Assembly: GCA_965116155.1 (NCBI GenBank)
Contig: OZ220488.1
Location: forward strand, 1,304,318 to 1,368,317
Length of the DNA: 64,000 nucleotides
DNA from: Bdellovibrionales bacterium
GTDB taxonomy: Bacteria > Bdellovibrionota > Bdellovibrionia > Bdellovibrionales > UBA1609
Direction of reading: 5' to 3'
Of the stretch, positions 9,134 through 55,241 are shown one piece after another. Numbering within the stretch: position 1 is the stretch's first letter; the number at the start of each line of letters is the position of its first letter. The position numbers and the translations under genes were made by a program. Under the pieces are notes generated by a model, which was not told the DNA's origin, made no database searches, and saw nothing but the letters and a program-made list of their open reading frames with translations.

Positions 9134-9835
9134 GTGGAACAGGCTGCAAACGAGGTAGCACAAGGGGTTGTAGATAACCAGGGGTTTGGTTATTTTTTAG
9201 CGCGCGCTTTTTCTGCAGAGCATGGCGGCGGCTTTATGATGTGGGTCATCTTGCTCGTGGGGGTGATGCTGGTTTTTTTAATCATTGAGCGTGTTATGTC
9301 TATGCGAAAGATGCGTGTGGACTCGGTGAGCTTGAACGATGGTTTGTACAGAATGGTGGTGCGTGGGGATATTAACCAGGCGGTTTCGTTTTGTGACACG
9401 CGTCCTGCTCCGCTTACTAATACATTAAAAGAGGGCTTAATACAGGTCATTAATAAGCGCCCTGATGAAGAGGTGCAGGTGGCGATGGATGCGGCGGTGT
9501 TGCGTGAGACTCCTCGTGTGGAGGGCTGGACAGCTCTTTTGGCATTGGGGGGTAACGTTGCGGTGCTGTTAGGGCTACTGGGTACTGTGGGAGGTTTGAT
9601 TAAGTCTTTTAGTGGTGTGGCGGCTGCTGATGCTGCGACCAAGTCGATAGAGTTGTCTAAGGGTATTTCGGAGGCTTTGAACTGTACGGCTTTTGGTTTG
9701 GGTGTGGCTATTATAGCTTTGGTGGCTTATGGTTTTTTGCAAATACGCATCGAGCGCATTTTAACGGATATGCGTGAGGGTAGTATGCGGGTTATGAACC
9801 TTGTGGTGGCTAACCGTGATAAGATTAAGGTCTAG
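9134..9835 (+). CDS. MotA/TolQ/ExbB-family proton channel (AglR-like)
   Basis: 233 aa with three TM helices. C-terminal conserved TolQ/ExbB block (GLLGTVGGLIKSF..ISEALNCTAFGLGVAIIALVAY). Confidence 0.8.
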   Translation: MEQAANEVAQGVVDNQGFGYFLARAFSAEHGGGFMMWVILLVGVMLVFLIIERVMSMRKMRVDSVSLNDGLYRMVVRGDINQAVSFCDTRPAPLTNTLKEGLIQVINKRPDEEVQVAMDAAVLRETPRVEGWTALLALGGNVAVLLGLLGTVGGLIKSFSGVAAADAATKSIELSKGISEALNCTAFGLGVAIIALVAYGFLQIRIERILTDMREGSMRVMNLVVANRDKIKV

Positions 9836-9865: not shown

Positions 9866-10339
9866 ATGGCCCATGTAGATACAGGCAAAGGCGGTGGGCG
9901 TGCGGCTAACGCGGACCTAAACATTGTGCCTTTTATAGACCTGATGAGTGTTTTGGTTATATTTTTGCTTATTACCGCGGTGTGGACACAGGTGACGATG
10001 ATTCAAATAGGCAGCTCTATTTACGGCAAAAAGTCAGACGACATGAAGCAACTCCCCAAGCCTGAGGTGCATATTCCGTTGAGGCTCGATGTGCGGCAGG
10101 GGGGGTTTTTTTTGATCATGGGTGATGAGCGCAAGAGTTTTCCAAAGCAGGGTGGTCAGTATAATGTGCCGGCTTTAGTGAAGGCGCTTAAGGATTTTAA
10201 GATGGTGCATCTGACTAAGGAGGATGCGGTGATTACCATTGAGGATCAGTTGAATTATGAGACTTTAATTTTGGGGATGGATGCCTTGTTAGAGGCGGAG
10301 TTTGGGCAGGTGTCTATTTCTACAGCGGCGGCTTTGTAG
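9866..10339 (+). CDS. ExbD/TolR-family protein (AglS/AglQ-like)
   Basis: 157 aa with the N-terminal ExbD signature (DLNIVPFIDLMSVLVIFLLIT). Directly follows the MotA/TolQ gene. Confidence 0.75.
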   Translation: MAHVDTGKGGGRAANADLNIVPFIDLMSVLVIFLLITAVWTQVTMIQIGSSIYGKKSDDMKQLPKPEVHIPLRLDVRQGGFFLIMGDERKSFPKQGGQYNVPALVKALKDFKMVHLTKEDAVITIEDQLNYETLILGMDALLEAEFGQVSISTAAAL

Positions 10340-10352
10340 GGGGTGTTAGGTC

Positions 10353-10946
10353 GTGCCAATATATGTGCCGGGTTATAGGGACCGCAAGGGCAGGGCTTCT
10401 GTTGTTAAGCGTAATGTGGTGGCGCTGTTATCTTTAACAGCCATGGTGGATCTGTTTACGGTTTTGGTGGTGTTTTTGTTGCAGAGCTATAATGTGACGG
10501 GCGAGGTAATAGACATTAGTGACGAGGTGCTGTTGCCGCAGGCTGTGCAGACAAAGGATCTCACCCCGGCCCATGTGGTGGTGCTGTCGCCAGATGAGTT
10601 GTTATTTAATGGTGAGCAGGTGGCTAATGTAAGCAGTTTGCGCGCGCAGCAGCATTGGATGATTGAAAGCTTGCTGGCTCAAACGCGCGGAGCTATTGAG
10701 GTGGGCGAAGCTAATGAAAAGAGCCTGTATGCAAAGATCAAAAGTGGTGTGCGGCAGGTTCGTAATGCTCCTGCAGATGAAAATGATGGTGTTGCTGCGG
10801 TGGTGCCGGAGTATCGAAAGGCCACAGTGCAGGCGGATAAGAGCATTCGATTTTTAACTCTTAAAAAGGTCTTGTACACGCTTACAGAGGCCGGCATCAT
10901 CGAAATCAATTTTGCAGTAATAAAAAGCCCCGAGTTAGAGCGCTAG
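10353..10946 (+). CDS. ExbD/TolR-family protein (second copy, AglQ/AglS-like)
   Basis: 197 aa with the ExbD signature (LSLTAMVDLFTVLVVFLL). The stop codon lies inside the TTAGAGCGCTAG motif (10935-10946). Confidence 0.7.
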   Translation: MPIYVPGYRDRKGRASVVKRNVVALLSLTAMVDLFTVLVVFLLQSYNVTGEVIDISDEVLLPQAVQTKDLTPAHVVVLSPDELLFNGEQVANVSSLRAQQHWMIESLLAQTRGAIEVGEANEKSLYAKIKSGVRQVRNAPADENDGVAAVVPEYRKATVQADKSIRFLTLKKVLYTLTEAGIIEINFAVIKSPELER

Positions 10947-10961
10947 TCCAAAATTCTGGGA

Positions 10962-11094
10962 TAGAGTGCGTAAGCATAAAAGTGTTAGTGAGGGCGCCTT
11001 GGCCAGAAAGCGCAGCCTGCTGACACACCTTTAGGTGTGCAAGGCAAGCGGTCTAAGCCAGGGTGCCCTCACGCGCTGGATAAAGCGGCGGCGC
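10962..11094. repeat. 133-bp hairpin element, copy a (TAGAGTGCGTAAGCATAAAAGTGTTAGTGAGGGCGCC...CCCTCACGCGCTGGATAAAGCGGCGGCGC)
   Basis: By manual alignment it differs from copy b (39949-40081) at 2 positions. Internal stems: GTGAGGGCGCC.TGG/CCAGGGTGCCCTCAC and CACACC-TTTA-GGTGTG. Confidence 0.9.
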
Positions 11095-11173
11095 AAGAGC
11101 AGCACCCAGTGCTTTTCAAGAGAGTTTGAACGCTTTGGGCCTATTGATCGCCCCAAGCTGTCGGCGCATTGAT

Positions 11174-11303
11174 AGCTGTCTAGCGCGCAAAAACACTTTG
11201 AATGGGGCCTCGCTTGCCACCTTGGCTGGCGCCCCTTGCAGGGGCTGCCAATGTGTCTACGCCTCTGATCAAAGTGTTTTTGCTGGCGCTTTTATCCTTA
11301 CGG
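11174..11303. repeat. Y-type hairpin element Y1 (AGCTGTCTAGCGCGC - arm - core - arm' - TGGCGCTTTTATCCTTACGG)
   Basis: Arms GCAAAAACACTTTGA / TCAAAGTGTTTTTGC. Core TTGGCTGGCGCCCCTTGCAGGGGCTGCCAA. An inverted near-identical copy lies at 39413-39543 (about 3 differences by eye). Confidence 0.9.
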
Positions 11304-11521
11304 AGCAAGCGTCCTACAGAGAATTTTGCGGCCTATAAGTGCGTAAGCATTTTTGCGCGCTAGACAGCTGGCGTAAGCATTAGAGTGCCAACAAAAAGGC
11401 GTGACCTGAGCTGCCAGATTTGCTTAAAGCTATGGAGCCTTGAGTCCATAGCGCCGTCTCCTTGATGCGCCTTTGGGCGGAAAGCCTTGAGCCTTAGGTT
11501 TGTCTTCGTCATACTATAAAT

Positions 11522-14086
11522 ATGCGTAAGCACTGGGTGGTTATTTGTTGTGTGGTGCTGTCTTGTGCTTTTATTGTGGTAGCTTGCTCCGATGATACTC
11601 CGGACCCTAAAGCGCCCACTCCTGATGCGAGCGCTGCAGACTTAAGGGCCGATGTACTAAAAGACCACGACACCCTGGTGGTGCCGCGTGATGGTGAGAC
11701 GCAGTACGATTTAAAACCTTTTTTTGCCACACTGCATGGGGTGGCAAAAAGCCAAATCCGCACCTCTAACACCAAAAGCCAAGTGGAGTTTGATACAGAT
11801 GACTGCTCGGAGGATGATGAGCTTTTTGAGCTGTCGTACCAAGTGTCAGGCAAAGACAAAGAGATAAATATAGAGTGTGCGGATTCTAGCACGGGCTTGC
11901 CCGATAGCGTGGATGAGGGGTTTTTATTTTTAGCTGGCAACAAAATCTATATGTATACGCTGGATGACAACGATGGCAAAAAGGACAAAGTGCCCATCAG
12001 TGCAGGGGAGTTGTTGTTTTTTTCTGCTGCGTCTAAAAATTTAAATGCTTCTAAAAAATTGCGCCGCCAAGAGATCACCTTTAAGGGCGATGACGATGAG
12101 ACAGAAGCTTCAGAGGTAGGAGCCGTATTAGCTTTTGGTGCTGCAGGTGACGTAAAGGTGGAGGACACCACTTTAGGCACTGCTGGTGCAGCTAAGGGCG
12201 ACGGGTTTTTATTTATAGCCGTGCACTGGGGCACAGATGATGGGGCGGATGATTTTTTTGGCCTAGGTCAGGACGAAGAAGACAATGTGCAAAAAGCCCA
12301 ACCAAGCTCTGGTAGTAACAATGATGATAACGACGATAGCGGTGGCGGCGACAGTGGCGGCAACAGTGGCGACGATGATGACAATGACGGCGACAGTGGT
12401 GACAGTAGCGGCGATGGCGATGGTGCAGGTGGAAGTAACGACGATGACAGTGGCAACAATAATGGTGACAGTGATAGTGACGATGATGATGACGTGGCAG
12501 GGGCGGCTAATTTGGTGGCGCCTTTTGCTGATGCAAAGGTGCAGGCTGGCACAAGTGCGGGGAGCTTAAATTTTAGCTGGGCCTGTAACACTGCAGCTGC
12601 GGATTCTATGTACCACTTAGCTAGTGCTGAGGGCGATTTAGACAGCTGTGCTGAGGTGAGTGTTGAGAGCACGCCTTTAGCAGATCGCACATTAGCGGGT
12701 GTGCATATTTTAAAAAAAACCGCATCAAGCAATTGGTCAAAGGCGGGCTATATTGCTGCAAGAGCTGTTACTAAAACAGGGTCGCGTTTTAAAGTGGTGC
12801 TAACTGACGTTGATACAGGTATTTATCAGTATGCTGTGGCGCCCGCTAAGGGAGAGAGTGATCTAGCGTGGGGGCGTGCTCCCTATCTAACACAGGCACA
12901 GCTGTTGGAAACAGGAGCAACGGGTACCACAAAGGTTAGTAGCTGCACTCACAATAACATGCCTGGGGCAAAAGAGTTTGCCGTGCTTGGCGTACCTGCT
13001 ACAAGCATACAGCTGTGTGTACCTCGCAACAAAAGGTGTGGGTTCAAACCGGTGCCAGGTAAGGCGGCGGGTGCGGATTGTGAGTGCCAGGCGTATGGGG
13101 GTCGTGCTTCGTCTGTGTCTGGTTTTGTGTGGGATGGCAAATGCGCCATGAATCCTATATTTAAGATGCTGCGTTACACCCAGCACAATACCAAAGGGCT
13201 CACGTTAGAGGAGCAAACAAGGTTAGCTAATCCCATAGGCCATGTTAAGTTTACGCCTATGTTTGGGTTTCCACCCTATGCCTCATGGGTCGCAGTGGAT
13301 CGGCGGTGGTTAAGGGCTTTCCGCCAGGAAATTGAAATCTGTGAAAAAACAAACAATGTAGGTGTGTGGCCTTCTGGCAATGTGCAAGGCGGCAGCTGGT
13401 GTAAGGGTCAAGGGGAGCTCAGGTCACCGTGGGTGTTTCCTGCGGAGCGCTTAGCTGTAGCGGCGAATGTGCGCCATTATTTTCGTATGCGCGCGTTGCA
13501 CCTTACTTTGAATTTGGGTGATGCAAATTACTGGCGAAGCCCTTGGGTTTTGATGCAAGCGGATTCGCACACAAGGTTTTGGGGTTTTTCAGACTCTACG
13601 GATGCTACTAAGCGCGATGTATTAGAAGCGCCTAGTGGAGCAAAGGTGTTATATGGTGGCAAAGGGAATGACTGGCTATCTGATACCACTCAAACGGCAA
13701 CGAATATGACTTTTTTGGTGGATTCTTTTTCTTGGGATTTAATTACCAATTTAGAACAAAGGTTCGCGCTTGGAGGAACTAGCCATACAACTCATATTAA
13801 GTGCTATAACGCGAGCCATACGCTTAAAATGGTGATTTTAGAGAGGCCGGATAATTTTTCTACCAGCAATTGGCAGACGCACTTTCAGGAGGCGACCCAT
13901 GCTTCAGACGCTCTGCCGCCAAGCGCATGCGCATTAGCAGATGCGGGCTTAAGGCATGCAAACTGCAAAGGCGTTCGTATTGTTATTAATTCTCAAGGAC
14001 ATTTTCATTTGTCTGGCACTTTTGGCGGCTCCTTAGGTGGCACCGCAGACGCCCCCAAGCGGCTACTGTATTTTAAGTGCAATTAG
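11522..14086 (+). CDS. Large lipoprotein with acidic D/S/G/N low-complexity linker and Cys-rich C-terminal region; function unknown
   Basis: 854 aa with a lipobox (..FIVVA-CSDD). Linker at about aa 255-330 (SGSNNDDNDDSGGGDSGGNSGDDDDNDGDSGDSSGDGDG..). One RTX-like nonapeptide (YGGKGNDWL). The stop TAG lies in the motif variant TTAGAGTGTTAG. Confidence 0.6.
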   Translation: MRKHWVVICCVVLSCAFIVVACSDDTPDPKAPTPDASAADLRADVLKDHDTLVVPRDGETQYDLKPFFATLHGVAKSQIRTSNTKSQVEFDTDDCSEDDELFELSYQVSGKDKEINIECADSSTGLPDSVDEGFLFLAGNKIYMYTLDDNDGKKDKVPISAGELLFFSAASKNLNASKKLRRQEITFKGDDDETEASEVGAVLAFGAAGDVKVEDTTLGTAGAAKGDGFLFIAVHWGTDDGADDFFGLGQDEEDNVQKAQPSSGSNNDDNDDSGGGDSGGNSGDDDDNDGDSGDSSGDGDGAGGSNDDDSGNNNGDSDSDDDDDVAGAANLVAPFADAKVQAGTSAGSLNFSWACNTAAADSMYHLASAEGDLDSCAEVSVESTPLADRTLAGVHILKKTASSNWSKAGYIAARAVTKTGSRFKVVLTDVDTGIYQYAVAPAKGESDLAWGRAPYLTQAQLLETGATGTTKVSSCTHNNMPGAKEFAVLGVPATSIQLCVPRNKRCGFKPVPGKAAGADCECQAYGGRASSVSGFVWDGKCAMNPIFKMLRYTQHNTKGLTLEEQTRLANPIGHVKFTPMFGFPPYASWVAVDRRWLRAFRQEIEICEKTNNVGVWPSGNVQGGSWCKGQGELRSPWVFPAERLAVAANVRHYFRMRALHLTLNLGDANYWRSPWVLMQADSHTRFWGFSDSTDATKRDVLEAPSGAKVLYGGKGNDWLSDTTQTATNMTFLVDSFSWDLITNLEQRFALGGTSHTTHIKCYNASHTLKMVILERPDNFSTSNWQTHFQEATHASDALPPSACALADAGLRHANCKGVRIVINSQGHFHLSGTFGGSLGGTADAPKRLLYFKCN

Positions 14087-14212
14087 AGTGTTAGCCCAAT
14101 ATTCTGGGCAAAGCGCAATCTCCAGTGTAGCCCCTGTTAAGGGGCTATCACGCTGGAGATAAGCGCCCCACAGAATATTGGGCGGGCCTATAAGGCATCT
14201 ATGAGCCTGTAG
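14083..14212. repeat. X-type hairpin element (TTAGAGTGTTAG - CCCAATATTCTGGG ... CCCACAGAATATTGGG - CGGGCCTATAAGGCATCTATGAGCCTGTAG)
   Basis: Read directly. Nested stems CTCCAGTG/CACGCTGGAG and TAGCCCCT-GTTA-AGGGGCTA. Termini match the family consensus. Confidence 0.85.
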
Positions 14213-16000: not shown

Positions 16001-16557
16001 ATTGTAGTCGACGCTGAAGTATTATCTAAACGACTGTAATTATTGTTAAATTTGTTGATATTGTGGGTTCTGTTTTTGCAGGGTTTATGGTGTTTTGAGT
16101 GAAGCTGTCTAGCGCGCAATATTACCTTGAAGCCTACGTTTGCCGTCTTGGCTAGCGCCCTGCGGGCTGCCAAGATGGCTGCACTCTAAGGTTCAAGGGT
16201 AATATTACTGGCGCTTTTATGCTTACGCCAAAAACCCTGCAAAACAAGAGGCTCTCTAGTGCACAAAATATTAACCTTGCAAAAGTTCTGCGTGTTAGCC
16301 CCTTGTGCTGAAGTATGTTCTCCGGCTGACTCTGGCTTAAGTTAGAGCGCTAGTAAAATTCTCTGAAGCAAAGCGGCGGCATCCTGACAGCCTCTGCAGG
16401 AGGCGACGATCAGGGTGCCAAGCGTCTTACAGAGAATTTTGCGACCTATAAGGGATCTGCGTGCCTGTAAGATACAGTATTAAAACCCTAATGTGGCACG
16501 AGTACGCGACAGCCGGAAGCCGGAGAACATACTTCAGTCACGACTATTGTAGCAAGC
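16001..16557. repeat. Composite palindromic repeat array, copy 1 (short form)
   Basis: Collinear with 39261-40376 by manual alignment. Terminal inverted repeats TAGTCGACGCTGAAG.. / ..CTTCAGTCACGACTA. Contains Y-type element 16103-16229 and X-type element 16342-16470. Confidence 0.85.
16103..16229. repeat. Y-type hairpin element Y3
   Basis: AGCTGTCTAGCGCGC, arms AATATTACCTTGAA / TTCAAGGGTAATATT, core CTTGGCTAGCGCCCTGCGGGCTGCCAAG, tail TGGCGCTTTTATGCTTACGCC. Confidence 0.85.
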
Positions 16558-16774
16558 ATGACAAGTATGGGTGGAGTTACCCCCCCCCTATCTTAAAATT
16601 AGGCCTAAAATTAGACCCAGGGTTAGGCGAAGGTTGAGGACTAAGGTGGGTACGGCGGCGGAGACTAGGCAAAAAAATAAAAAACGCCATAAAATTTTGC
16701 ACTTTCATACTAAAAACAGTGTGGGTATTTTTGCATAAACATTGGTAGTGTTATGCAATTTTTAAGCCCAAAGT

Positions 16775-16794
16775 TTAGAGCGCTAGCGCTCTAA
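16775..16794. repeat. Perfect 20-bp palindrome TTAGAGCGCTAGCGCTCTAA (two overlapping boundary motifs) on the scoB stop codon
   Basis: Read directly. The minus-strand reading CAA GTT AGA GCG CTA GCG CTC TAA gives the ScoB C-terminus ..QVRALAL*. Confidence 0.95.
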
Positions 16795-17434
16795 CTTGGG
16801 GGTGAATTTTGAGTGGAGCGCCAGTGGCTTGGGCTACTTGCTCAGGGCTAAGGTCTGCCGCATGTTCCATAAGTACCAGCCCCTCGCTGGGGTCGACCTT
16901 TATGTAGCCATAGTCCGAAACAATTATGTCCACACATTTTTTGCCTGTAAGCGGTAAGCGGCAAGCGGGTAAAATTTTAGGCTCACCCTTTTTATTAGTG
17001 TGGGTCATGGCCACAACAACCTTTTTGGCTCCTGCAACCAAATCCATAGCCCCACCCATGCCTTTAACCATTTTGTTAGGAATCATCCAATTAGCAATGT
17101 CTCCCTCGCAAGACACCTCCATGGCACCCAAAACCGTAATATCCACATGCCCCCCACGGATCATAGCAAAAGACTCTGCAGAAGAAAAAAACGACGCCCC
17201 CTTAACAGCTGTGACGGTTTGCTTACCAGCATTTATCAAATCAGGATCCACCTGCTCGGCAGTCGGAAAAGCCCCCATACCCAAAAGCCCGTTTTCGCTT
17301 TGTATTAAAACTTGCTTTTCGTCACCAATATAATTCGCCACCAAAGTGGGCATACCAATGCCCAAATTCACTACAGACCCAGGCTGCACAAAATCCGCTA
17401 TGCGCTCTGCAATACGCTCTCTAGATAAAGGCAC
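16775..17434 (-). CDS. scoB: 3-oxoacid CoA-transferase subunit B
   Basis: 219 aa. Conserved blocks LVNLGIGMPT, SENG, GGAMDL and KILPACRLPLTG are typical of CoA-transferase family I beta subunits. Follows the A subunit. Confidence 0.85.
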   Translation of the reverse strand: MPLSRERIAERIADFVQPGSVVNLGIGMPTLVANYIGDEKQVLIQSENGLLGMGAFPTAEQVDPDLINAGKQTVTAVKGASFFSSAESFAMIRGGHVDITVLGAMEVSCEGDIANWMIPNKMVKGMGGAMDLVAGAKKVVVAMTHTNKKGEPKILPACRLPLTGKKCVDIIVSDYGYIKVDPSEGLVLMEHAADLSPEQVAQATGAPLKIHPQVRALAL

Positions 17435-29502: not shown

Positions 29503-29636
29503 CAGGCTCGTAGATGCCTTATAGGTCGCAAAATTCTCTGTAAGACGCTTGGCACCCTGATGGCCGCCCCGTTGGGGCTATCAGGATGCCGCCGCTCTTC
29601 TTCAGAGAATTTCGCTAGCACTCTAATGCTTACGCA
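29503..29636. repeat. X-type hairpin element (CAGGCTCGTAGATGCCTTATAGGTCGC - AAAATTCTCTG ... CAGAGAATTT - CGCTAGCACTCTAA - TGCTTACGCA)
   Basis: Read directly. Inner stem CACCCTGAT/ATCAGGATG, core GCCGCCCCGTTGGGGC. A near-identical element lies at 51904-52027. Confidence 0.85.
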
Positions 29637-29659
29637 TAGCGCTTTAATGGAGATTAGAC

Positions 29660-33859: not shown

Positions 33860-34549
33860 GTGATTTGTATGAGACGTTTGTTTTTGTTCATGGTGGTATT
33901 TTTTTATGCCCTAACTTCTGTAGCTGAGGAAAGCAGCACAAGTGGTGCGCAAGAAAGCGCTCCTAAGAGCCAAAGCCTTGAGCCTCCCCAAATAGATCAT
34001 CCTTTGGTTCAGCACGGTGCAGATCCGGTGTTAAAACTTTTGGAACAAGTCAATCCAATAAAAAAACCCACGCCCCTCCTCCCTAATGCCAAGCCAGATG
34101 TAGCAACAGCTTCAAATCCTATTTTGAATATGCATAAGCAACGCGGCAATACAAAAATCGCCAAAACACTTAATGCTTGCATGGGTTTAAATGTGGGGGT
34201 TTTGTCTGCCGTTACCCTTGCAGTAAATATTTTTAAAATGGTGCATGCACGCAGTTTGCACCCTTTTTTGAACCTTCCAGAAGCTCTTGCATTTGGCTTT
34301 TTTGCTGCAGGAGGGGCGTTTTTTGTAGAGTATGTTATGGGAGTGCCGTCTCTTGAAACATGTGAAAAAATAAGGCAGCAACTAACATCCTGGCTCCATA
34401 TAGAAAACGGGCAAGTAAGCGCCACCTTTGCAGACCCTCATACGGGTGAAACTATAAAAGTGCGTTGTCTGGCTGAGTCTGACCCCTCTAACACCACAAC
34501 CGGCATAAAAGTTTTAGAAAAAACCTGTACCATCATAGACTCCAGATAG
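33860..34549 (+). CDS. Secreted/two-TM membrane protein, unknown function
   Basis: 229 aa with a signal peptide (..LTSVAEE), two Gly/Ala-rich TM helices and a Cys-containing C-terminal domain. The last 9 codons lie in the 30-bp direct repeat DR-L. Confidence 0.5.
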   Translation: MICMRRLFLFMVVFFYALTSVAEESSTSGAQESAPKSQSLEPPQIDHPLVQHGADPVLKLLEQVNPIKKPTPLLPNAKPDVATASNPILNMHKQRGNTKIAKTLNACMGLNVGVLSAVTLAVNIFKMVHARSLHPFLNLPEALAFGFFAAGGAFFVEYVMGVPSLETCEKIRQQLTSWLHIENGQVSATFADPHTGETIKVRCLAESDPSNTTTGIKVLEKTCTIIDSR

Positions 34550-34552
34550 GCC
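34523..34552. repeat. 30-bp direct repeat DR-L (ACCTGTACCATCATAGACTCCAGATAGGCC) flanking the AbiE cassette
   Basis: Matches 36448-36477 at 28 of 30 positions (read directly). Overlaps the stop codon of 33860..34549. Confidence 0.9.
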
Positions 34553-34735
34553 TGTATGCTTACGCCCAATTAAAGTGCTAGTAAAAACTCTTTAAGCAGC
34601 AAGTGCAGTCCCAAGAGCAGCTTCTTAAGCTGCTCTTGGGACTGCACTTACTGGCCAAGTTCGTTTTACTAGCACTCTGATGCTTACGCACTTTATCTCA
34701 GAATATTGGACTGGCGCTCTAATCTTGTGCAAGTA
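34553..34735. repeat. Hairpin repeat array R7 including a perfect 23-bp-stem palindrome (34601-34649)
   Basis: ATGCTTACGC, TTAAAGTGCTAGTAAAAACTCTTTAAGC. Palindrome AAGTGCAGTCCCAAGAGCAGCTT-ctt-AAGCTGCTCTTGGGACTGCACTT. CTAGCACTCTGATGCTTACGCA. CAGAATATTGGACTGGCGCTCTAA. Confidence 0.9.
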
Positions 34736-34818
34736 CTTGAAATTATGTGGTTTTTTCAACAAATTGCATGAATTTTTAATAAAAATATTGACTTTTGCGC
34801 CGCCATCGACGATACTAA

Positions 34819-35439
34819 ATGTACGAAGGTGTAGGTATGAGGGCGCAAGCAGGCCTAGATAAAATGAAGCAATTCTTGACCTCTGGAAAGGTCTACAGAA
34901 GGTCCGATTTTTTAGGCATGACTTCTAGTGTGGATAGAAGCCTAAAGGCCTTAGTTGGGGCGGGTTTTTTAAAAAAGCTGCAACATGGCCTATATTTAGC
35001 GCCTAAGCAGACTATCTTTGGAGAAGCTATGCCTGATGAAGAGGAGCTTTTAAAAAAGTTTTTAAATGATGATCACTTTGTTGTTTATGGACCTAGTAGG
35101 TTCAATGCTTTAGGCCTTGGAACGACACAGCTCTACAATAAAAGAGTGGTATTTAATCGCAAGCGCCATGGGGCAATGAGGCTTGGTGATAGAAGTTATG
35201 ATTTTTATCGTTGGCGAGAGGCTCCTAAGGTTTTATCGAAAGAATTTCTTCTGGTTGAAATGTTTAATAAGTTTAGTGAATTGGCAGAGGATTATGATGC
35301 AGTTGTTAATAACCTTAAAGCCAAGCTCAGTGAATTTAATTCAGCTAAGCTGCATAATGCTCTTAATAGGTTTGGTACGAGATCGGCACAGAAAAAATTA
35401 AGGCCTCTGCTAGAAGAAAATAAAAATGTACCTGCATAA
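34819..35439 (+). CDS. AbiEi-like antitoxin (type IV TA, DUF6088-like winged-helix protein)
   Basis: 206 aa. N-terminal wHTH-like segment (GKVYRRSDFLGMTSSVDRSLKALVGAGFLKKLQHGLYLAP) resembles AbiEi-type antitoxins. Overlaps the downstream AbiEii gene by 14 nt. Start uncertain (ATG 34819, 34837 or 34864). Confidence 0.6.
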   Translation: MYEGVGMRAQAGLDKMKQFLTSGKVYRRSDFLGMTSSVDRSLKALVGAGFLKKLQHGLYLAPKQTIFGEAMPDEEELLKKFLNDDHFVVYGPSRFNALGLGTTQLYNKRVVFNRKRHGAMRLGDRSYDFYRWREAPKVLSKEFLLVEMFNKFSELAEDYDAVVNNLKAKLSEFNSAKLHNALNRFGTRSAQKKLRPLLEENKNVPA

Positions 35440-36394
35440 TCATGAGAACTTTAAGGAATTAGTCGAACTAGTTGCTAAAGAGCAGGAGATTAATGACCCT
35501 TCTTTTGTTGAGAAGGACTACTGGATTATGCATTACCTGTATGGGTTGTCACACTTTGGGCTCGATATGGCTCTTAAGGGAGGAACCTCTATTTCAAAAG
35601 CCTTTAATATCATTCATCGTTTTTCAGAAGATATTGATATAAAGATTATTCCCAATAATGAGAGGGTGGGTTTTTGTGTTTATACGGACAAGAACCACAA
35701 TAAACCTAAGCATCGAGAAAGTAGGAAAAAATACTTTGACTGGCTAGCCAAAGAGTTAAAATGCAGCATTGATGGCATTTTCGATGTTACTAGAGACGGG
35801 GCTTTTGATGATGAAAAATATAGAAATGGTGGCATTCGTTTAATCTATGAAACAATGTTTGCGCCAAACCAAGCGTTGAAAGAGGGCATCCTTTTAGAGG
35901 TGGGTTTTGATAAAACCACTCCCAATATGGAAAAAGATATTTCCTCATGGGCCTATGACAAGGGCGTTAGTATTCTAGCAGACAAAGGCTTAAAAGATAA
36001 TAGGGCAAAAGGTGTGATTTGCTATGATCCACGATATACTTTTGTTGAAAAGCTTCAGGCCATTGTGACTAAGTATGCGCTTTATAAGAAAGGCAAAAAT
36101 CATGGCAAATGGCCGGTTAATTTTTTAAGGCACTACTATGATATTTACTGCCTTTTAGACTGCAAAGAAGTCCAGGGCTTTATTGGGACTGATGATTATG
36201 AAGAGTATAAAAAAGCAAGATTTCGTAAATACGATACAGTGATTAAAAATTGCGAAGGATTTGCGCTATCCGACGAAGAGGAACGAAAAATTTTTGAGGA
36301 TCATTATCTAAAATCCTCTGCACTTTACTACAAAGGTCAAATACCTTTTGAAGACATTTTAAACCGCATACAATCGTATCTTGAAAGGCTTTAG
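35426..36394 (+). CDS. AbiEii/AbiGii-family nucleotidyltransferase toxin (type IV TA)
   Basis: 322 aa. Family signature LKGGTSISKAF..HRFSEDIDI (NTase G[GS] ... DxD). C-terminal helical domain. AT-rich. Confidence 0.75.
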   Translation: MYLHNHENFKELVELVAKEQEINDPSFVEKDYWIMHYLYGLSHFGLDMALKGGTSISKAFNIIHRFSEDIDIKIIPNNERVGFCVYTDKNHNKPKHRESRKKYFDWLAKELKCSIDGIFDVTRDGAFDDEKYRNGGIRLIYETMFAPNQALKEGILLEVGFDKTTPNMEKDISSWAYDKGVSILADKGLKDNRAKGVICYDPRYTFVEKLQAIVTKYALYKKGKNHGKWPVNFLRHYYDIYCLLDCKEVQGFIGTDDYEEYKKARFRKYDTVIKNCEGFALSDEEERKIFEDHYLKSSALYYKGQIPFEDILNRIQSYLERL

Positions 36395-36447
36395 TTTCGG
36401 TTTCTATGACAGTGCAACCTCACTCCCTTAGACGATATGGACCCTTT

Positions 36448-36477
36448 ACCTGCACCATCATAGACTCCAGATAAGCC
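36448..36477. repeat. 30-bp direct repeat DR-R (ACCTGCACCATCATAGACTCCAGATAAGCC)
   Basis: Matches DR-L at 28 of 30 positions. Followed by ..CAGAATATTGGGCTAGCGCTCTAA, which carries the stop of the convergent gene. Confidence 0.9.
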
Positions 36478-36495
36478 GCCCCGCAGAATATTGGG

Positions 36496-37320
36496 CTAGC
36501 GCTCTAATTGTATTGGGATGCCTCTTTTTTTGCAAAATGCCTTGGTATCTTCAAGGTTTTCAGTACGGTACTCAGATTCCGGTTTGCTGCTCTCAAAGGC
36601 AAAATACTTGGGGCAAATAAGGCGGTGGGTGAGCTCTCTTACATGCTCTACACACTGTTCGTGGTTATAAAATTTGTCGTTTTTTTCTCTTAAAGTAAAG
36701 CTTGTAAAGCTAAAACCTCTATGGGCAAAGAACTCTCTAGCATATGCAGGAGATGCGAGATCGGGGCTAGGCACCAAATCTAAGAGCTTGTACCTGAAAA
36801 ACTTTGCTGTGTTGTCCTGCATTAGAAAGAAAAAATTAATAACAGAATTAAGGGATTTTGAGGCACAAACATCACCGCTTAAAAATAAAAATCTCGAAAA
36901 CTCATGGTACGAACCAAGGCTTGTGTGTATCAAAAAACTCATGTGCTGTCGCAAGTTAGAATAAAAGCTCTTTGACTCAGGCGCATTAGGATTTTGCATG
37001 TATTGCCTATAGCTTTCTGATAAATGGGACTCCATAAAATTTACGGCAGCAGCTCCCCCCTCTTTAGAAAACACACTCAGAAAATCCAAAGCCAATGCGT
37101 TTTGAGGCCACTTATTGGCATAGTCTAGCAGCGCCCTAGTAGCACGTTTTTTGTAGATGCCTTGCATGTTTGAAATAGTTTTGAAAACAGTCTTAGCGCG
37201 CGGGTTGCTTCGCCAAGCCTTTTTGGCGGCTTTTTTGTTGAGTATAATATCACTGGCATTAGCACTTGCCACCGTACCCGATCCCAAAACTAATAGCAAA
37301 ATTAAACCTAATGCTCGCAT
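36496..37320 (-). CDS. Secreted protein, unknown function (divergent from metzincin 1)
   Basis: ORF 36496..37419. The ATG at 37320 gives a signal peptide (MRALGLILLLVLGSGTVASA). AT-rich. The stop TAG lies inside CTAGCGCTCTAA (36496-36507). Confidence 0.5.
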   Translation of the reverse strand: MRALGLILLLVLGSGTVASANASDIILNKKAAKKAWRSNPRAKTVFKTISNMQGIYKKRATRALLDYANKWPQNALALDFLSVFSKEGGAAAVNFMESHLSESYRQYMQNPNAPESKSFYSNLRQHMSFLIHTSLGSYHEFSRFLFLSGDVCASKSLNSVINFFFLMQDNTAKFFRYKLLDLVPSPDLASPAYAREFFAHRGFSFTSFTLREKNDKFYNHEQCVEHVRELTHRLICPKYFAFESSKPESEYRTENLEDTKAFCKKRGIPIQLER

Positions 37321-37491
37321 CTTTGATCCCTCCCTATTTTGTTGTCGTTGTGACTTTGTATTTAAAAAAACATCAAACTGCATGCTGCATCGTCCCATCC
37401 TGCTGAGGGCTCCCCGCATTGCGTCAACAAGGCCTAAAAAAAGCTTAAAAAGCTGCTATTTTTTGGTGCTGTCTTTTAAAAGTAAAGTTCC

Positions 37492-38274
37492 ATGCTAAAA
37501 AAATACCGTCTTGTACTTATGGCAGTGGCAGTGCTTTTTGTAGAAGCCGTGCAGGCGAAAGAGCCATACTGCGCATCGCCGGATATCACGCCTACGTTTT
37601 ATGGCGGCACCCATGCAGTGGCCCGATATGTAAAACTCATAGGGGGTATCGTTTTTTATGTGAGTCCTACTTTAGACAAGCGTTTTCATGAAGACATAAA
37701 AGCAGCAGCTAAAACCTGGAATGAGCACCTGCCTCAAGGCGCCCAAATTGCTCTTACTTTTTCACAAGCTAAATGGCGCAGTAAAATAAAAACACAAAGC
37801 GGCAAAGCAATGGCGATCATCCTAGAGCATGCTGGCGGCGTACTGCAACGCTTGCTGCGCACAGACTCACCTAATCTGCTAGAGGATCATAGTGACTTCT
37901 TGCCTGGTGGTACCATAGGCTCTGTAGAGATAGACCCTGCGCCCCCGTTGTTGCGCAAAAATCTTGAAGATATTCTCGCATACGCGATACCTTTTTTATC
38001 GCAGATTTTTATTAACAATGTTGATCATCAGTTTTATGTAATGCAAAAAATAGACGCATTCCAAGACAAGCAGCCCTTTTACGGAACCATACTCCATGAA
38101 ATGGGGCATACCCTAGGCCTAGACCACAATGACCACGACCCTAACAGCGTAATGTCTCGGCAAACATCAAGGCTGGCGCGCTTGAGTGACTCTGACATTA
38201 GGGCGATCCGCTGTGCTTATGGCATGGGCCCTCCTCGACCCTCTTTAAAGTCTTTTGCGGTGCCTGCCCCATAA
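37492..38274 (+). CDS. Secreted metzincin zinc metalloprotease (matrixin/M10-like), paralog 1
   Basis: 260 aa with a signal peptide. HEMGHTLGLDHNDHDPNSVMS (HExxHxxGxxH plus Met-turn). Conserved N-terminal KEPYCASPDITP and C-terminal SDIRAIRCAYG are shared with the two paralogs. Confidence 0.8.
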   Translation: MLKKYRLVLMAVAVLFVEAVQAKEPYCASPDITPTFYGGTHAVARYVKLIGGIVFYVSPTLDKRFHEDIKAAAKTWNEHLPQGAQIALTFSQAKWRSKIKTQSGKAMAIILEHAGGVLQRLLRTDSPNLLEDHSDFLPGGTIGSVEIDPAPPLLRKNLEDILAYAIPFLSQIFINNVDHQFYVMQKIDAFQDKQPFYGTILHEMGHTLGLDHNDHDPNSVMSRQTSRLARLSDSDIRAIRCAYGMGPPRPSLKSFAVPAP

Positions 38275-38374: not shown

Positions 38375-39016
38375 ATGCAGATTGGGCGCAAACTTTTAAC
38401 ACACGGCGTTTTGGTGCTGGTTTTTGGCGTAGCGGGGTTAAGCCCAGCAGCACAGGCTGAGCCTGTTGAGGGTTTGAGCAAGCACGCTGTAGCCTACGCA
38501 TATATGCAGCGCGTGCTTGAGCAATGCGCTGAAGATGCAGCTGTAGACTTGGAGCAAGCGCGCAAGAATGTGGGCGCGCTCACATCTTTAGGAGGCTTTT
38601 ACGGTGCTGCGGTGGCCTTGCTGATCTCTGGGTTTGTGACAGATTTTAAGCCCTTCGTGTGGGGTGTGCCCGTGAGTGCTGCGGTGGGGTTTGTTGGAGG
38701 TGGTTTTGCGGCATATTTTCTCTTTAGGGGGCAAGTTGATAAGCATGCAGCCTCAAGTGTCTTGGGGGAGCAGGCTCAGGCCTACCCAAGGTGCCATGGG
38801 CTTTTTGAAGTGACTTTAGAAAGTGGCAGTGTGTTTTTACAAGAGCGCGGAGGACCTTTTGGTATGCGGTGCCTTTTGGATTTGGATGTTGAGATGGATC
38901 TTTCCAGCTTGCCTGATAATACAGGTTTATTGAAGCAAAATGTTTCTTCTGTAGGCAGCTTAGAAAACACCATACTCCCACTGCCCATCCAGTACGAAAC
39001 CTGCGAGTTAATTTAA
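38375..39016 (+). CDS. 213-aa signal-peptide + two-TM protein with Cys-containing C-terminal domain (metzincin-associated partner, copy 1)
   Basis: Signal peptide (..SPAAQA-EP) and two Gly-rich TM helices. C-terminus ..CHGLFEVTLESGSVFLQE..MRCLLDLD..LPLPIQYETCELI. Paralog of 49952..50593, which has the same length. Confidence 0.6.
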   Translation: MQIGRKLLTHGVLVLVFGVAGLSPAAQAEPVEGLSKHAVAYAYMQRVLEQCAEDAAVDLEQARKNVGALTSLGGFYGAAVALLISGFVTDFKPFVWGVPVSAAVGFVGGGFAAYFLFRGQVDKHAASSVLGEQAQAYPRCHGLFEVTLESGSVFLQERGGPFGMRCLLDLDVEMDLSSLPDNTGLLKQNVSSVGSLENTILPLPIQYETCELI

Positions 39017-39369
39017 AAAGTGCGTAAGCTGTATAGGTCGTAAAAACTCTTTAAGGCTTACGTTTCGCCCCCTTACATGACACCCACTACGGGGGCCAAG
39101 GGGGCTTCACTTACTGCTTAAAGAGTTTTTACTAGCGCTTTAATTGGGCGTAAGCATCAGAGTGCTAGTAAAACAAACTTGGCCAGTAAGTGCAGTCCCA
39201 AGGCGACCATACTCCCGTCAAAGCCCCGTGCATTGAGTAAACTCAAGTTAGAGCGCTGTGGCTTGCTATTCTAGTCGACGCTGAAGCACTGTCTAAACAC
39301 CTGTAATTGTTGTTAATTTTGTTGATATTTGGGGTTCTGTTTTTGCAGGGTTTTGTGTGTTTTAGGTGA

Positions 39370-39810
39370 AGCTGTCTAGTGCACAAAAATGCCTCAGGCA
39401 GGCCCACTTGTCCCGTAAGGATAAAAGCGCCAGCAAAAACACTTTGATCAGAGACGCAGACACATTGGCAGCCCCTGCAAGGGGCGCCAGCCAAGGTGGC
39501 AAGCGAGGCTCCCATTCAAAGTGTTTTTGCGCGCTAGACAGCTATCAACGCGCCGGTAGCTTTGGACGATCTGTAGGTCCAAAGCGTACACACTCTCGTA
39601 GATGGCCCGCGCCCAAGGTGCGTAAGCATAAAAGTGGCCCCTTGAAATCTTGGGCGGATAGCGAAGCCACCTGCGCCCCTTTATGGGGTGCTAAGCAGGT
39701 GGTAAGCGGAGAGCCCCAAAATTTCAAGGGAAAACTAGATAGCTACCGGCGCTATCAGATAGACTGCGTAGGGCTGAAGTCATTTTTGTTGGCACTTTTA
39801 TGCTTACGCC
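39370..39810. repeat. Y-type element carrying two nested insertions (filled form of the 128-bp element at 55053-55180)
   Basis: Same termini and arms as 55053-55180 (AGCTGTCTAGTGCACAAAAATGC.TCAGG ... GCTGAAG.CATTTTTGTTGGCACTTTTATGCTTACGC) but 441 bp long. Confidence 0.8.
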
Positions 39811-39948
39811 AAAAACCTGCAAAATAAGCGGCCCTCTAGTGCACGGAATATTAACCTTGCAGAGGTTTTGCGTGTTAGCCCCTTGTGCTGAAGTATGTTC
39901 TCCGGCTGACTCTGGTGTAAGTTAGAGCGCTAGTAAAATTCTCTGAGG

Positions 39949-40081
39949 TAGAGTGCGTAAGCATAAAAGTGTTAGTGAGGGCGCCCTGGCCAGAGAGCGC
40001 AGCCTGCTGACACACCTTTAGGTGTGCAAGGCAAGCGGTCTAAGCCAGGGTGCCCTCACGCGCTGGATAAAGCGGCGGCGC
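39949..40081. repeat. 133-bp hairpin element, copy b
   Basis: 2 mismatches to 10962-11094. Absent from the corresponding position of composite copy 1 (about 16368). Confidence 0.9.
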
Positions 40082-40215
40082 GCTGATAGCCCCAACGGGG
40101 CGACGATCAGGGTGCCAAGCGTCTTACAGAGAATTTTGCGACCTATAAGGGATCTGCGTGCCTGTAAGATACAGTATTAAAACCCTAATGTGGCATGAAT
40201 ACGCGACAGCCGGAA

Positions 40216-40340
40216 GTGCGTAAGCATAAAAGTGTTAGTGAGGGCGCCCTGGCCAGAGAGCGCAGCCTGCTGACACACCTTTAGGTGTGCAAGGCAAGCG
40301 GCCTAAGCTAGGGCACCCTCACGTGCTGGATAGCTTTTCC
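40216..40340. repeat. 133-bp-family hairpin element, copy c (about 6 differences, different 3' tail)
   Basis: GTGCGTAAGCATAAAAGTGTTAGTGAGGGCGCCCTGG...CTAGGGCACCCTCACGTGCTGGATAG. Interrupts CAGCCGGAA^GCCGGAGAACAT, which is intact in copy 1 at 16511-16530. Confidence 0.85.
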
Positions 40341-40364
40341 CCGAAGAACATACTTCAGTCACGA

Positions 40365-41279
40365 CTATTTTAGTACTCGCACGATTTTAACAGGGCCATG
40401 GGTTGGGATTTCAAGAAGGGCCAGCACCTTTGTGCTAGTGCCATTTATAACTTGCACCATAATACTTTTTTTTGCCCTATGGGCCTCTCGTTGCAAGGGT
40501 ACTAAGCGTTTTTCTAAACCCACCGGCAACTGCCCATGGGCTAACAAGCGTGCATCTAAACCCGCAACGCAAAATTCACGAAAACCCGGCCTCAAAGCCA
40601 CCCGCAAATCTACAAAGCCCCTTCCTGCCAGAGCTTTGGGCGACTCTTCCAGCTCCTCTAAAGACAAAGCTTCCTCCACCCTCCAGGGCCCCACGCGCGT
40701 GCGCCTTAAGTTGCTGAGCACCGCACCCACACCCAAGCGTTGTCCCAAGCTATGCGCCCACGATCTAACATAAGAGCCACTGCTACAACTGAAGCTCCAC
40801 GTAGCCTGAGGCCACGCAGAAGCCGCAAGCCGTTTTATGCCCTTAAAACACATAGGCCTCACAATGCGGGGCACATCCATCCCCTTGCGTGCCTTTTTAT
40901 ACAAAGCCTCACCACCAGACTTGACGGCCGAAAAAGCCGGCACCTCTAGCTCTACAGTGCCCGACAAGTGTTTTTGCACCACTGTATCTACATGCTCCCA
41001 ACCTGGGCTAGGAGCCTTTGCTTGCTCTAACACTCGGCCCGAAATATCCCAAGTGTCTGTTACTAAGCCAAACTGCACCTTGGCCACATAGCTTTTGTCT
41101 TGCGCCAACATATAGCGCGCCACTTTAGTGGCAGGGCCCAAAAGTACCAGCATTAAGCCTGTGGCCAAAGGATCTAAAGTGCCGCTGTGCCCTACTTGCT
41201 GAATAGACAAAGCCTTACGCACACGGGCCACCACTTTGTGACTGGTGATGCCAGCCGGCTTATCAATTAACAAAAGCAT
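40365..41279 (-). CDS. truB: tRNA pseudouridine(55) synthase
   Basis: 304 aa. LLLIDKPAGITSHKVV, catalytic GHSGTLDPLATGLMLVLLG. The stop codon lies inside the terminal TAGTCG.. of the composite repeat. Confidence 0.9.
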   Translation of the reverse strand: MLLLIDKPAGITSHKVVARVRKALSIQQVGHSGTLDPLATGLMLVLLGPATKVARYMLAQDKSYVAKVQFGLVTDTWDISGRVLEQAKAPSPGWEHVDTVVQKHLSGTVELEVPAFSAVKSGGEALYKKARKGMDVPRIVRPMCFKGIKRLAASAWPQATWSFSCSSGSYVRSWAHSLGQRLGVGAVLSNLRRTRVGPWRVEEALSLEELEESPKALAGRGFVDLRVALRPGFREFCVAGLDARLLAHGQLPVGLEKRLVPLQREAHRAKKSIMVQVINGTSTKVLALLEIPTHGPVKIVRVLK

Positions 41280-54859: not shown

Positions 54860-54860
54860 T

Positions 54861-55235
54861 GCGTAAGCATCAGAGCGCTAGCAAGACCACTGGTATGCGG
54901 CGCAGCCCCATTGGCAGCGCCTTCAGGCGCGTTAGCCAAGGAGGCAAGCAAAGCCCCCAGTGGTCTTGCGACCTATGAAGCTACAGGGCCATAGATCCCT
55001 TATAGGCCGCAGAATTTTCTGTGGGACGCTTGCTTCTGTCGTGGCCGCCTTTAGCTGTCTAGTGCACAAAAATGCTTCAGGCAGGACCACTTGTCCATCT
55101 GATGGCCCGCACCTAAAGGTGCTATCAGCTGGACTGCGTAGGGCTGAAGCCATTTTTGTTGGCACTTTTATGCTTACGCACGGAGGCTGCGCCAGGAGCG
55201 CCGCTTTATCCCAGAAAATTCTACTAGCGCTCTAA
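54861..55235. repeat. Hairpin repeat array R12 (X-type 54861-54988 inverted; X-type 54984-55235 containing nested Y-type 55053-55180)
   Basis: GCGTAAGCATCAGAGCGCTAG-CAAGACCACTGG...CCAGTGGTCTTG-CGACCTATGAAG. Then CAGGGCCATAGATCCCTTATAGGCCGC-AGAATTTTCTGTGGG...CCCAGAAAATTCT-ACTAGCGCTCTAA. Confidence 0.9.
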
Positions 55236-55241
55236 ACACAA

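Follow-up and report, generated by a model that had tools for sequence, protein, structure and literature searches.

The window analysed here is a stretch of 64,000 nucleotides (nt) from the genome of a Bdellovibrionales bacterium (contig OZ220488.1, positions 1,304,318 to 1,368,317 of the forward strand). It contains a two-gene AbiE cassette, predicted to encode a toxin-antitoxin pair of the abortive-infection (Abi) type, which is situated between two converging hypothetical genes (gene1 and gene2) and is bracketed by two copies of a 30-bp direct repeat (A on the left, A′ on the right). The interval between the two copies is 1895 bp long and its only two real open reading frames (ORFs) are the AbiE genes. 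The cassette was probably gained by insertion with long target duplication (ILTD). The features of the locus are listed below with their coordinates in the window.

33869..34549, + strand: gene1, an ORF for a hypothetical signal-peptide/membrane protein of 226 amino acids (aa) counted from the ATG; the target gene with the duplicated 3′ end
34523..34552, + strand: left repeat copy A, comprising the last 8 codons of gene1, its TAG stop and GCC
34553..34698, no strand assigned: hairpin element of a dispersed mosaic repeat family, found by inverted-repeat search, with arms flanked by ATGCTTACGC motifs
34699..34723, + strand: left copy of the B module, CAGAATATTGGACTGGCGCTCTAAT, which is either the end module of the hairpin unit or the remnant of a larger target duplication (61 bp)
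34766..34836, + strand: putative promoter region of the cassette, based on alignment with loci L081, L084, L085 and L086, a promoter scan and an inverted repeat
34837..35439, + strand: abiEi, predicted antitoxin and regulator, 200 aa (PADLOC AbiEi PDLC02234, 2.4e-67 over the full length; Pfam DUF6088, 2.2e-6)
35426..36394, + strand: abiEii, predicted nucleotidyltransferase toxin, 322 aa (Pfam PF08843, 3.8e-26 over residues 38-313; PADLOC AbiEii, 3.2e-61)
36395..36447, + strand: tail of the insert, 53 nt, ending in a weak motif, CCCTTTAC, tentatively common to locus L173 (pairwise p ~0.03)
36448..36477, + strand: right repeat copy A′, a relic of the gene1 end, contiguous with the probable ancestral junction
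36484..36508, + strand: B′ module, whose minus strand encodes the last codons of gene2 (..LER) and its stop
36496..37419, − strand: gene2, an ORF for a converging hypothetical protein

The initial annotation of the window, made from the sequence alone, had proposed an AbiEi-like antitoxin and an AbiEii toxin, and both assignments were borne out by PADLOC (2.4e-67 and 3.2e-61) and Pfam. AbiEii proteins are GTP-binding nucleotidyltransferase toxins, and AbiEi serves as their antitoxin and as an autorepressor. The start of abiEi was set at position 34837 by alignment with 200-aa relatives, and the gene overlaps abiEii by 14 nt. Relatives of abiEi show 64-81% identity. For abiEii we found 7297 relatives, the best of them 81, 76 and 70% identical, and every column invariant among 32 relatives is present, including GGTS and SEDID. 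The sequence comparisons support the prediction of an intact AbiEi/AbiEii pair. The promoter region contains a putative −35 element, TTGACT (34788-34793), and a putative −10 element, GATACT (34811-34816). A perfect 7-bp palindrome (ATTTTTA-A-TAAAAAT, 34772-34786) lies inside the conserved promoter and could be the operator bound by AbiEi.

The repeat, ACCTGYACCATCATAGACTCCAGATARGCC, has its sole matches in the window at 34523-34552 and 36448-36477, which are identical at 28 of 30 positions, as had been reported in the initial annotation; no such match was seen in 100 shuffled windows. The longest perfect identity between the two copies is 20 bp, and the first 21 nt of the 30-mer have no third copy in the window even with up to three mismatches allowed. 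Copy A contains the eight codons TCTIIDSR and the TAG stop of the ORF at 33860/33869-34549, followed by 3 nt (GCC). That the left copy includes the end of gene1 and its stop had been seen before, with nine codons counted; the repeat holds eight, and the K of ..KTCTIIDSR* lies outside it. Both mismatches between A and A′ (TGT/TGC and TAG/TAA) are silent in the gene1 frame. These data support the view that the 3′ end of gene1 is duplicated by the A/A′ pair.

On the right side, A′ is separated from B′ by 6 nt (GCCCCG), and the relic of the gene1 stop lies 21 nt from the end of gene2. On the left side, the spacing between A and B is 146 nt and is occupied by the hairpin. The succession of A′ and B′ is most likely the ancestral junction between the two converging genes, a role already suggested for the second copy. 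The segment A′-GCCCCG-B′ looks like an originally tight junction built on a half-element of the dispersed hairpin family; positions 14157-14183 agree at 26 of 28 nt with the stretch that runs from the last 9 nt of A′ across the spacer into the start of B′. The initial annotation had also considered that the 30-mer might prove to be a common member of this family, and this applies to its last 9 nt and to the B module, not to the 21 coding nt. Thirty base pairs are the certain extent of the duplication, with only the 21 coding nt of A specific to the A/A′ pair. A larger duplication of 61 bp (A + GCCCCG + B), with the hairpin entering the left copy later, is possible and is indistinguishable from an arrival of B together with the hairpin. 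Neither Pfam nor NCBIfam gave a match for gene1, and gene2 had no protein family match. Among 5.8 billion proteins the only homologue of gene1 was its own record (1.61 Mb contig, NCBI/ENA).

Regarding the origin of the interval, the G+C content is 36-38% over abiEi and abiEii and 38.3% over the whole interval vs 46-47% in the 3 kb on either side, in agreement with the AT-richness first estimated by eye, although the immediately adjoining hypothetical genes have only 39-44%. DNA homology to foreign cassettes (69-79%) spans exactly 34764-36393, from the promoter to the toxin stop and nothing further, and the promoter stretch CATGAAATTTTAATAAAAATATTGACTTTTG is kept in all five aligned loci. The contigs carrying homologous cassettes have a G+C content of 32-36%. 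In these other genomes the cassettes adjoin type I restriction genes, other toxins and helicase-type defence genes, and family members at ~51% identity are found on rhizobial and other plasmids. No close relative of the cassette was present among 50,697 phage records. These results support a foreign insertion between the repeats, and they mark the operon as a recent foreign acquisition in a small genome (1.61 Mb) of a poorly sampled lineage related to Bdellovibrionota. The lack of an integrase noted earlier was confirmed: there is no recombinase between the repeats and none among the ORFs checked in 23946-45268 (~10.5 kb upstream to 8.8 kb downstream), which are either housekeeping genes or have no family match.

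We searched for the same architecture around homologous cassettes in 69 AbiE loci with enough flank, in which the sequence preceding the antitoxin gene was compared with that following the toxin gene and matches of at least 40 bits were taken as bracketing. Five loci were bracketed, L089 by 92 nt, L085 by 85 nt, L162 by 48 nt, L107 by 40 nt and the window by 30 nt, and the matches in the others did not exceed 23 nt. In controls of the same geometry, bracketing was recovered at 1 of 141 shifted positions in the same loci, in 5 of 569 tests in unrelated loci (all five representing one homologous site in Sporosarcina relatives) and in 0 of 87 tests across the window. The difference between the AbiE loci and the pooled shifted and unrelated controls (5/69 vs 6/710) gives a Fisher p of 0.0014. 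Four further close relatives added a sixth case, L173, with a 107-nt repeat at 94% identity and a distance of 1958 nt between the copies. Within the close clade, with toxins at least 66% identical to that of the window, three of nine distinct loci are bracketed.

Four of the six cases are clean, namely the window, L085, L162 and L173, and their repeats are mutually unrelated, host-specific and located at gene ends. Locus L085 (toxin 70% identical, on a 1.29 Mb contig) carries an 85-nt direct repeat (96%, copies 1917 nt apart) around the cassette. This strict form begins 18 nt after the transfer-messenger RNA (tmRNA) gene; when gaps are allowed the repeat extends to 102 nt and begins at the base after that gene. 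In L173 the right copy spans the final 27 codons of a converging biotin/lipoate-ligase gene with its stop codon, and additionally a hairpin common to both converging genes. The 30-mer of the window has no copy in any of 89 related cassette loci, and no core common to the repeats of the four clean loci was detected; the comparison of L085 with L173 (p = 0.013) does not reach significance when all six comparisons are taken into account. L085 5083-5184 and L173 572-678 have in common a short similar stretch, ACCAG.CTCTT.ATC, which may be due to chance or to related hosts.

We found no similarity among the left inserts that would indicate a conserved left end, and the right tails have only a weak common motif (p ~0.03-0.04). 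The distance from the toxin stop to the right repeat is 53 nt in the window, 50 nt in L085 and 48 nt in L173. A defined right end some 48-53 nt past the toxin stop is tentative, a lead and not a finding.

The two remaining cases, first counted as parallels, are now considered ambiguous. The L089 repeat recurs in L090 and L094 within a larger multi-copy structure, which in L094 holds two group I introns beside the repeat, and the repeat of L107 is palindromic and may be a terminator or a dispersed element. In L094, a freshwater-type metagenome contig, two copies of a ~680-nt composite repeat (2131-2804 and 5952-6611; also 9327-9398 and 10227-10309) each hold a group I intron (Rfam RF00028, 54.6 and 50.2 bits) by a sequence resembling a tRNA 3′ end that ARAGORN did not call. 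They bracket 3.8 kb with a gene for 430 aa and the AbiE cassette, and the same cassette (97%) lies in another context in L089. Beside the AbiE cassette of L137, ~2.4 kb are surrounded by a direct repeat with a gap (18 nt at 94% and 25 nt without mismatch; 6396-6490 and 8864-8952), perhaps another insertion of this type or else a local repeat.

An empty site was found for the L162 cassette. The host is, judging from its SecA relatives, an Omnitrophota bacterium, and the same filled site was seen on three more contigs, which come from other samples. The left repeat consists of the last 16 codons of secA (..DPCPCGSGKKYKKCCG), and the right copy includes the beginning of the gene that follows. A relative whose SecA is 87% identical (L169, L170) has prfB, secA, a membrane-protein gene and lnt in the same order without the cassette, and there the secA end overlaps the start of the next gene. 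The three-way alignment shows one copy of the repeat in the empty site. The left copy of L162 follows the upstream flank and diverges after ..TGCTGCGGA, while the right copy diverges before GACCCC.. and follows the downstream flank including the original CAATAG end. L162 is a plain 48-nt target duplication around an insert of ~2 kb. The two differences between its repeat copies both fall, when compared with the outgroup, in the relic copy.

The left end of the L162 insert (4085-4245, corresponding to L166 6625-6784) contains a short ORF with the motif HHITQRGNYRQNVF (HHITQRGN..RQ), which does not occur in the window. We take this motif to be similar to the N-terminus of IS200/RAYT tyrosine transposases, an impression that Pfam did not confirm, having returned nothing at E <= 0.01.

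Returning to the window, the hairpin to the right of copy A has arms at 34569-34623 and 34627-34681 and a predicted DNA fold of -46.8 kcal/mol (z = -9.1). Its closest relative in the window lies at 39101-39202 (93-98% identity), and others are found at 10935-11015, 39922-40002 and 40214-40265. A second collinear repeat absent from the initial annotation, B (CAGAATATTGGRCTRGCGCTCTAAT), is present at 34699-34723 and 36484-36508 (23/25), with further copies at 10934-10958 and 14082-14106 that likewise overlap ORF stop codons. The two B copies at the cassette locus are no more alike than either is to these further copies, and the left B with its linker is arranged as in copy 10935-11015. Hairpin and B sequences recur at several intergenic sites of the window, whereas the 21 coding nt of the 30-mer do not.

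Three unrelated ORFs (10353-10946, 11522-14086 and 36496-37419) take their stop codon from the B module, TTAGAGCGCTAG.. when read in the sense of the genes. The corresponding copies lie on the minus strand at 10934-10958 and 14082-14106 and on the plus strand at 36484-36508, and two of the three ORFs end in -LER. The dispersed family seems to be placed preferentially on gene 3′ ends. Intergenic mosaic hairpin arrays were also noticed at 38990-40400, 10960-11400, 14110-14190, 16200-16800, 29600-29640 and 54860-55240; their modules are linked by ATGCTTACGC / GCGTAAGCAT in alternating orientation and resemble repetitive extragenic palindromic (REP) sequences and bacterial interspersed mosaic elements (BIMEs). 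Rfam gave no match to these arrays, and we found no IS200/RAYT-type motif in the window.

The neighbours of the locus are genes for an electron-transfer flavoprotein, 3-hydroxyacyl-CoA dehydrogenase, fused methylmalonyl-CoA mutase (IcmF), TruB, an acyl-CoA ligase and an AddA-type helicase. The best relatives of IcmF, a large conserved upstream gene, come from Bdellovibrionales metagenome-assembled genomes at 61% identity, so no syntenic relative is available for the window. No tRNA, tmRNA or known RNA that could have served as an insertion target was detected in the window. Between the core metabolic genes, positions 33860-38274 form a stretch of lower G+C (39-47%) with lineage-specific proteins that have signal-peptide-like N-termini and lack family matches; a matrixin-like zinc peptidase (37492-38274, Pfam PF00413, 5.8e-7) lies inside it.

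The term ILTD was introduced by Kobayashi's group to describe how restriction-modification gene complexes are inserted (Nobusato et al. 2000, Gene 259:99; Furuta, Abe and Kobayashi 2010, PMC2853133). The published cases have an insert of <20 kb with a complete system and no mobility gene, a variable repeat of >30 bp and an empty site in a relative, and the repeats often span a start or stop codon and leave the target gene intact (PMC2853133). The same authors suggested a dependence on a common property of restriction systems, e.g. double-strand breakage, and proposed that the units are inserted, amplified through the repeats and released again in a cycle (PMC2853133). A later review discusses toxin-antitoxin systems alongside and gives the ILTD route for restriction-modification only (PMC3874152). 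The literature searched contained no description of long target duplication around toxin-antitoxin or Abi cassettes, which is not proof of absence.

We consider ILTD the best explanation of the window cassette, with a probability of roughly 0.6, as there is no transposase or integrase, the element has no defined ends, and the sequence and length of the repeat are set by the target. The reading builds on the foreign character of the cassette, the specific duplication, the recurrence of the architecture around homologous cassettes and the parallel empty site of L162. Under ILTD, a horizontally acquired unit of ~1.65 kb (own promoter, abiEi and abiEii) would have entered the very short spacer of two converging host genes and duplicated at least 30 bp of the target, maybe 61 bp (A + GCCCCG + B) if the hairpin entered the left copy later. 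The left copy would complete gene1 and the right copy would keep the old junction with the gene2 end, so that neither host gene would be damaged.

The joining itself may have been a host-driven illegitimate recombination, for which we argue because the cases have no common ends or core sites and their repeat length is variable. A foreign fragment could have been captured at a staggered break followed by fill-in, or replication could have switched template out to foreign DNA and returned 30-110 nt upstream. Selection for intact neighbouring genes would filter the survivors, and through the flanking repeats the unit could later be excised or amplified and, by homologous recombination, enter sister strains again. 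The pair would then be retained by toxin-antitoxin addiction and/or abortive-infection defence. An empty site or excision scar would have ..CCAGATA(A/G)GCC joined straight to GCCCCGCAGAATATTGGG. The cassette does not represent a novel element type; it adds a new cargo, and a recurring instance, to an insertion mode that is known though unexplained.

Several points weigh against ILTD in the window. The repeat of 30 bp is at the lower limit, Furuta et al. having required >30 bp, and its last 9 nt belong, with the B module, to a dispersed repeat family. Directly inside the left repeat lies a host-family hairpin, which a foreign fragment could not have brought, so a second event or a donor of the same lineage is needed; either the hairpin entered later, with the 93-98% identity of hairpin copies suggesting recent activity, or the donor shared the lineage. 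A scan of 185,579 species-representative genomes with gene1 gave nothing, and no empty site is findable for the window because gene1 has no homologue elsewhere in the protein collection searched. Two of the six bracketed loci are ambiguous (L089/L094 and L107). Moreover, about seven of eight differences between repeat copies are silent (2/2 in the window, 2/2 in L162 and 3/4 in L173, in coding parts), which two functional alleles fit better than a new duplication decaying neutrally. It points to an origin of at least some repeat copies as alleles from two genomes, which would mean that the cassettes spread secondarily between sister strains through recombination of the repeats.

A further explanation is spread within the species. 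Here circular or linear DNA of a sister strain, with the cassette and a copy of the gene1 end, would have entered by a single crossover of the Campbell type, or by one-sided homology combined with illegitimate joining, and the two repeats would be the alleles of donor and recipient. Under free decay ~40% of the differences are expected to be silent (rough binomial p ~0.01), the segment inside the left repeat starts with the host-family hairpin and thus suggests a same-lineage donor, and a cycle of excision and re-entry through flanking repeats has been proposed for restriction-modification units (PMC2853133). However, 20 bp of perfect identity are short for RecA-dependent exchange, the numbers of silent differences are tiny, and in L162, where the relic copy alone has changed, later mutation fits as well. 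We regard this route as unlikely, though deserving some weight; moreover, it explains this locus only, and ILTD would still have to account for the initial insertion in the lineage. The initial annotation had likened the repeats to attL/attR of a site-specifically integrated mini-cassette. Under this reading the element would have lost its integrase or would use one in trans, as do cis-mobilisable or Xer-dependent elements. Repeats that duplicate a gene 3′ end are indeed typical of integrase-borne islands, L085 lies directly beside a tmRNA gene, and the 48-53 nt between toxin stop and right repeat in three close-clade cases, with their weak common motif, hint at a defined right end. Nevertheless, no recombinase is encoded in the element or in the surroundings checked, the related loci contain no attP-like copy of the 30-mer, the host-specific parallel repeats (48-107 bp) have no core, the L085 repeat starts after the tmRNA gene and not inside it, and no dif-like two-arm symmetry is visible by eye in the 30-mer. 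The insert ends of L162 look arbitrary, and its plain target duplication also speaks against an att-type event. Site-specific integration is thus not upheld and seems improbable to us.

Integron gene cassettes and Xer/dif sites were looked at separately and rejected. By eye, the 30-mer has no RYYYAAC/GTTRRRY core sites and is not palindromic, and no integrase was present among the ORFs checked; the Xer/dif reading was likewise discarded by eye on the sequence.

Nothing need have been duplicated by the insertion if the cassette had landed by chance between existing copies of a dispersed repeat. Mosaic hairpin repeats, B among them, abound in the window, and the last 9 nt of the 30-mer with the spacer and B′ match another family copy at 26/28. 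This idea does not account for the first 21 nt, which are found nowhere else in the window and are part of the gene1 reading frame, nor for the parallel cases, which duplicate unique coding sequence of secA and of the ligase gene, and we think it quite improbable. An artefact of assembly, in which a low-GC contig of another organism was joined through a short common word, would explain the G+C contrast in what is likely a metagenome-type genome with no close relative among the species representatives. It is very hard to reconcile with the contiguity of the cassette promoter with host-family repeats on the left and of the right side with A′, B′ and gene2, with a longest exact common word of 20 nt, and with the same architecture in independent assemblies of other organisms from several samples; we give it almost no credence.

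A more far-reaching variant of ILTD is that the AbiE cassettes of the close clade are themselves mobile units. They would have a defined 3′ end ~50 nt past the toxin stop, enter gene ends independently of a recombinase while duplicating 30-110 bp, and leave or become amplified through the repeats, possibly with their own polymerase-beta-type nucleotidyltransferase and its DNA-binding partner aiding the joining. We hold this to be speculative and rather unlikely. If true, ILTD would be a route that small addictive or defence pairs use in general, and not a by-product of restriction enzymes.

Among known systems, the hairpin at 34553-34698 and the B modules are like REP/BIME-like dispersed palindromic repeats or miniature inverted-repeat transposable elements (MITEs) in being mosaic, intergenic and overlapping with gene stops. 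In contrast to such repeats as the main actors, they are passengers or neighbours here, and the 21 coding nt of the bracket stand outside the family. Modules moved by Xer recombinases, such as integrative mobile elements exploiting Xer (IMEX) and the pdif modules of Acinetobacter plasmids, which often carry toxin-antitoxin genes, resemble the cassette in their small cargo without an own recombinase and their sites of ~28-30 bp. They differ in that the 30-mer has no dif-like two arms by eye and lies in a coding end, and the parallel repeats are 48-107 bp long and unrelated. The pdif sites bracket their modules in inverted orientation. The cassette resembles integrase-borne islets and cis-mobilisable elements in that its direct repeats restore the target gene end and that one parallel case lies beside a tmRNA gene, but here there is no integrase and no conserved core, and the length and sequence of the repeats depend on the host.

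The operon itself is comparable to the AbiE type IV toxin-antitoxin/Abi system (Dy et al. 2014, PMC3985639), with a bicistronic arrangement of overlapping genes, a DUF1814/PF08843 nucleotidyltransferase toxin, an upstream antitoxin gene scored as AbiEi by PADLOC, and a promoter palindrome as a possible operator. Unlike in that system, the window antitoxin matches DUF6088 in Pfam and no canonical AbiEi family was found in the Pfam scan. Furthermore, the characterised systems reside on plasmids or conjugative elements, whereas the window cassette stands alone among core genes.

The closest comparison is with the ILTD of restriction-modification genes. How small defence and toxin-antitoxin modules reach ordinary chromosomal sites without genes of mobile elements is an old open question, and ILTD, proposed from restriction-modification genes and tentatively tied to DNA cutting, has never been mechanistically reproduced. 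In the AbiE and the restriction-modification cases alike, a small selfish gene pair is inserted without a mobility gene, long and variable direct repeats of target sequence often cover a start or stop codon and leave the neighbouring gene intact, and a single-copy empty site exists in a related genome (here for L162). The window insert of 1895 bp falls within the <20 kb of the published cases and carries a complete AbiE system with no mobility gene. As to repeat length, the >30 bp of the published cases compares with 30 bp at 28/30 in the window (61 bp when the dispersed B is counted) and with 48-107 bp in the parallel cases. Furuta et al. also asked for a repeat that is not multi-copy in its genome; the 30-mer has two copies in 64 kb, with its last 9 nt resembling a family module. 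The main difference is the cargo, a toxin-antitoxin/abortive-infection pair and not a restriction enzyme, and the idea of cargo-driven DNA breakage is therefore inapplicable. The repeated AbiE footprint in unrelated hosts indicates that a restriction enzyme is not required for it. Compared with the restriction-modification cases, the AbiE cases supply many natural junctions and one confirmed empty/filled pair, and the cassette is a small two-gene unit that could serve for tests of insertion, excision and amplification in the laboratory.

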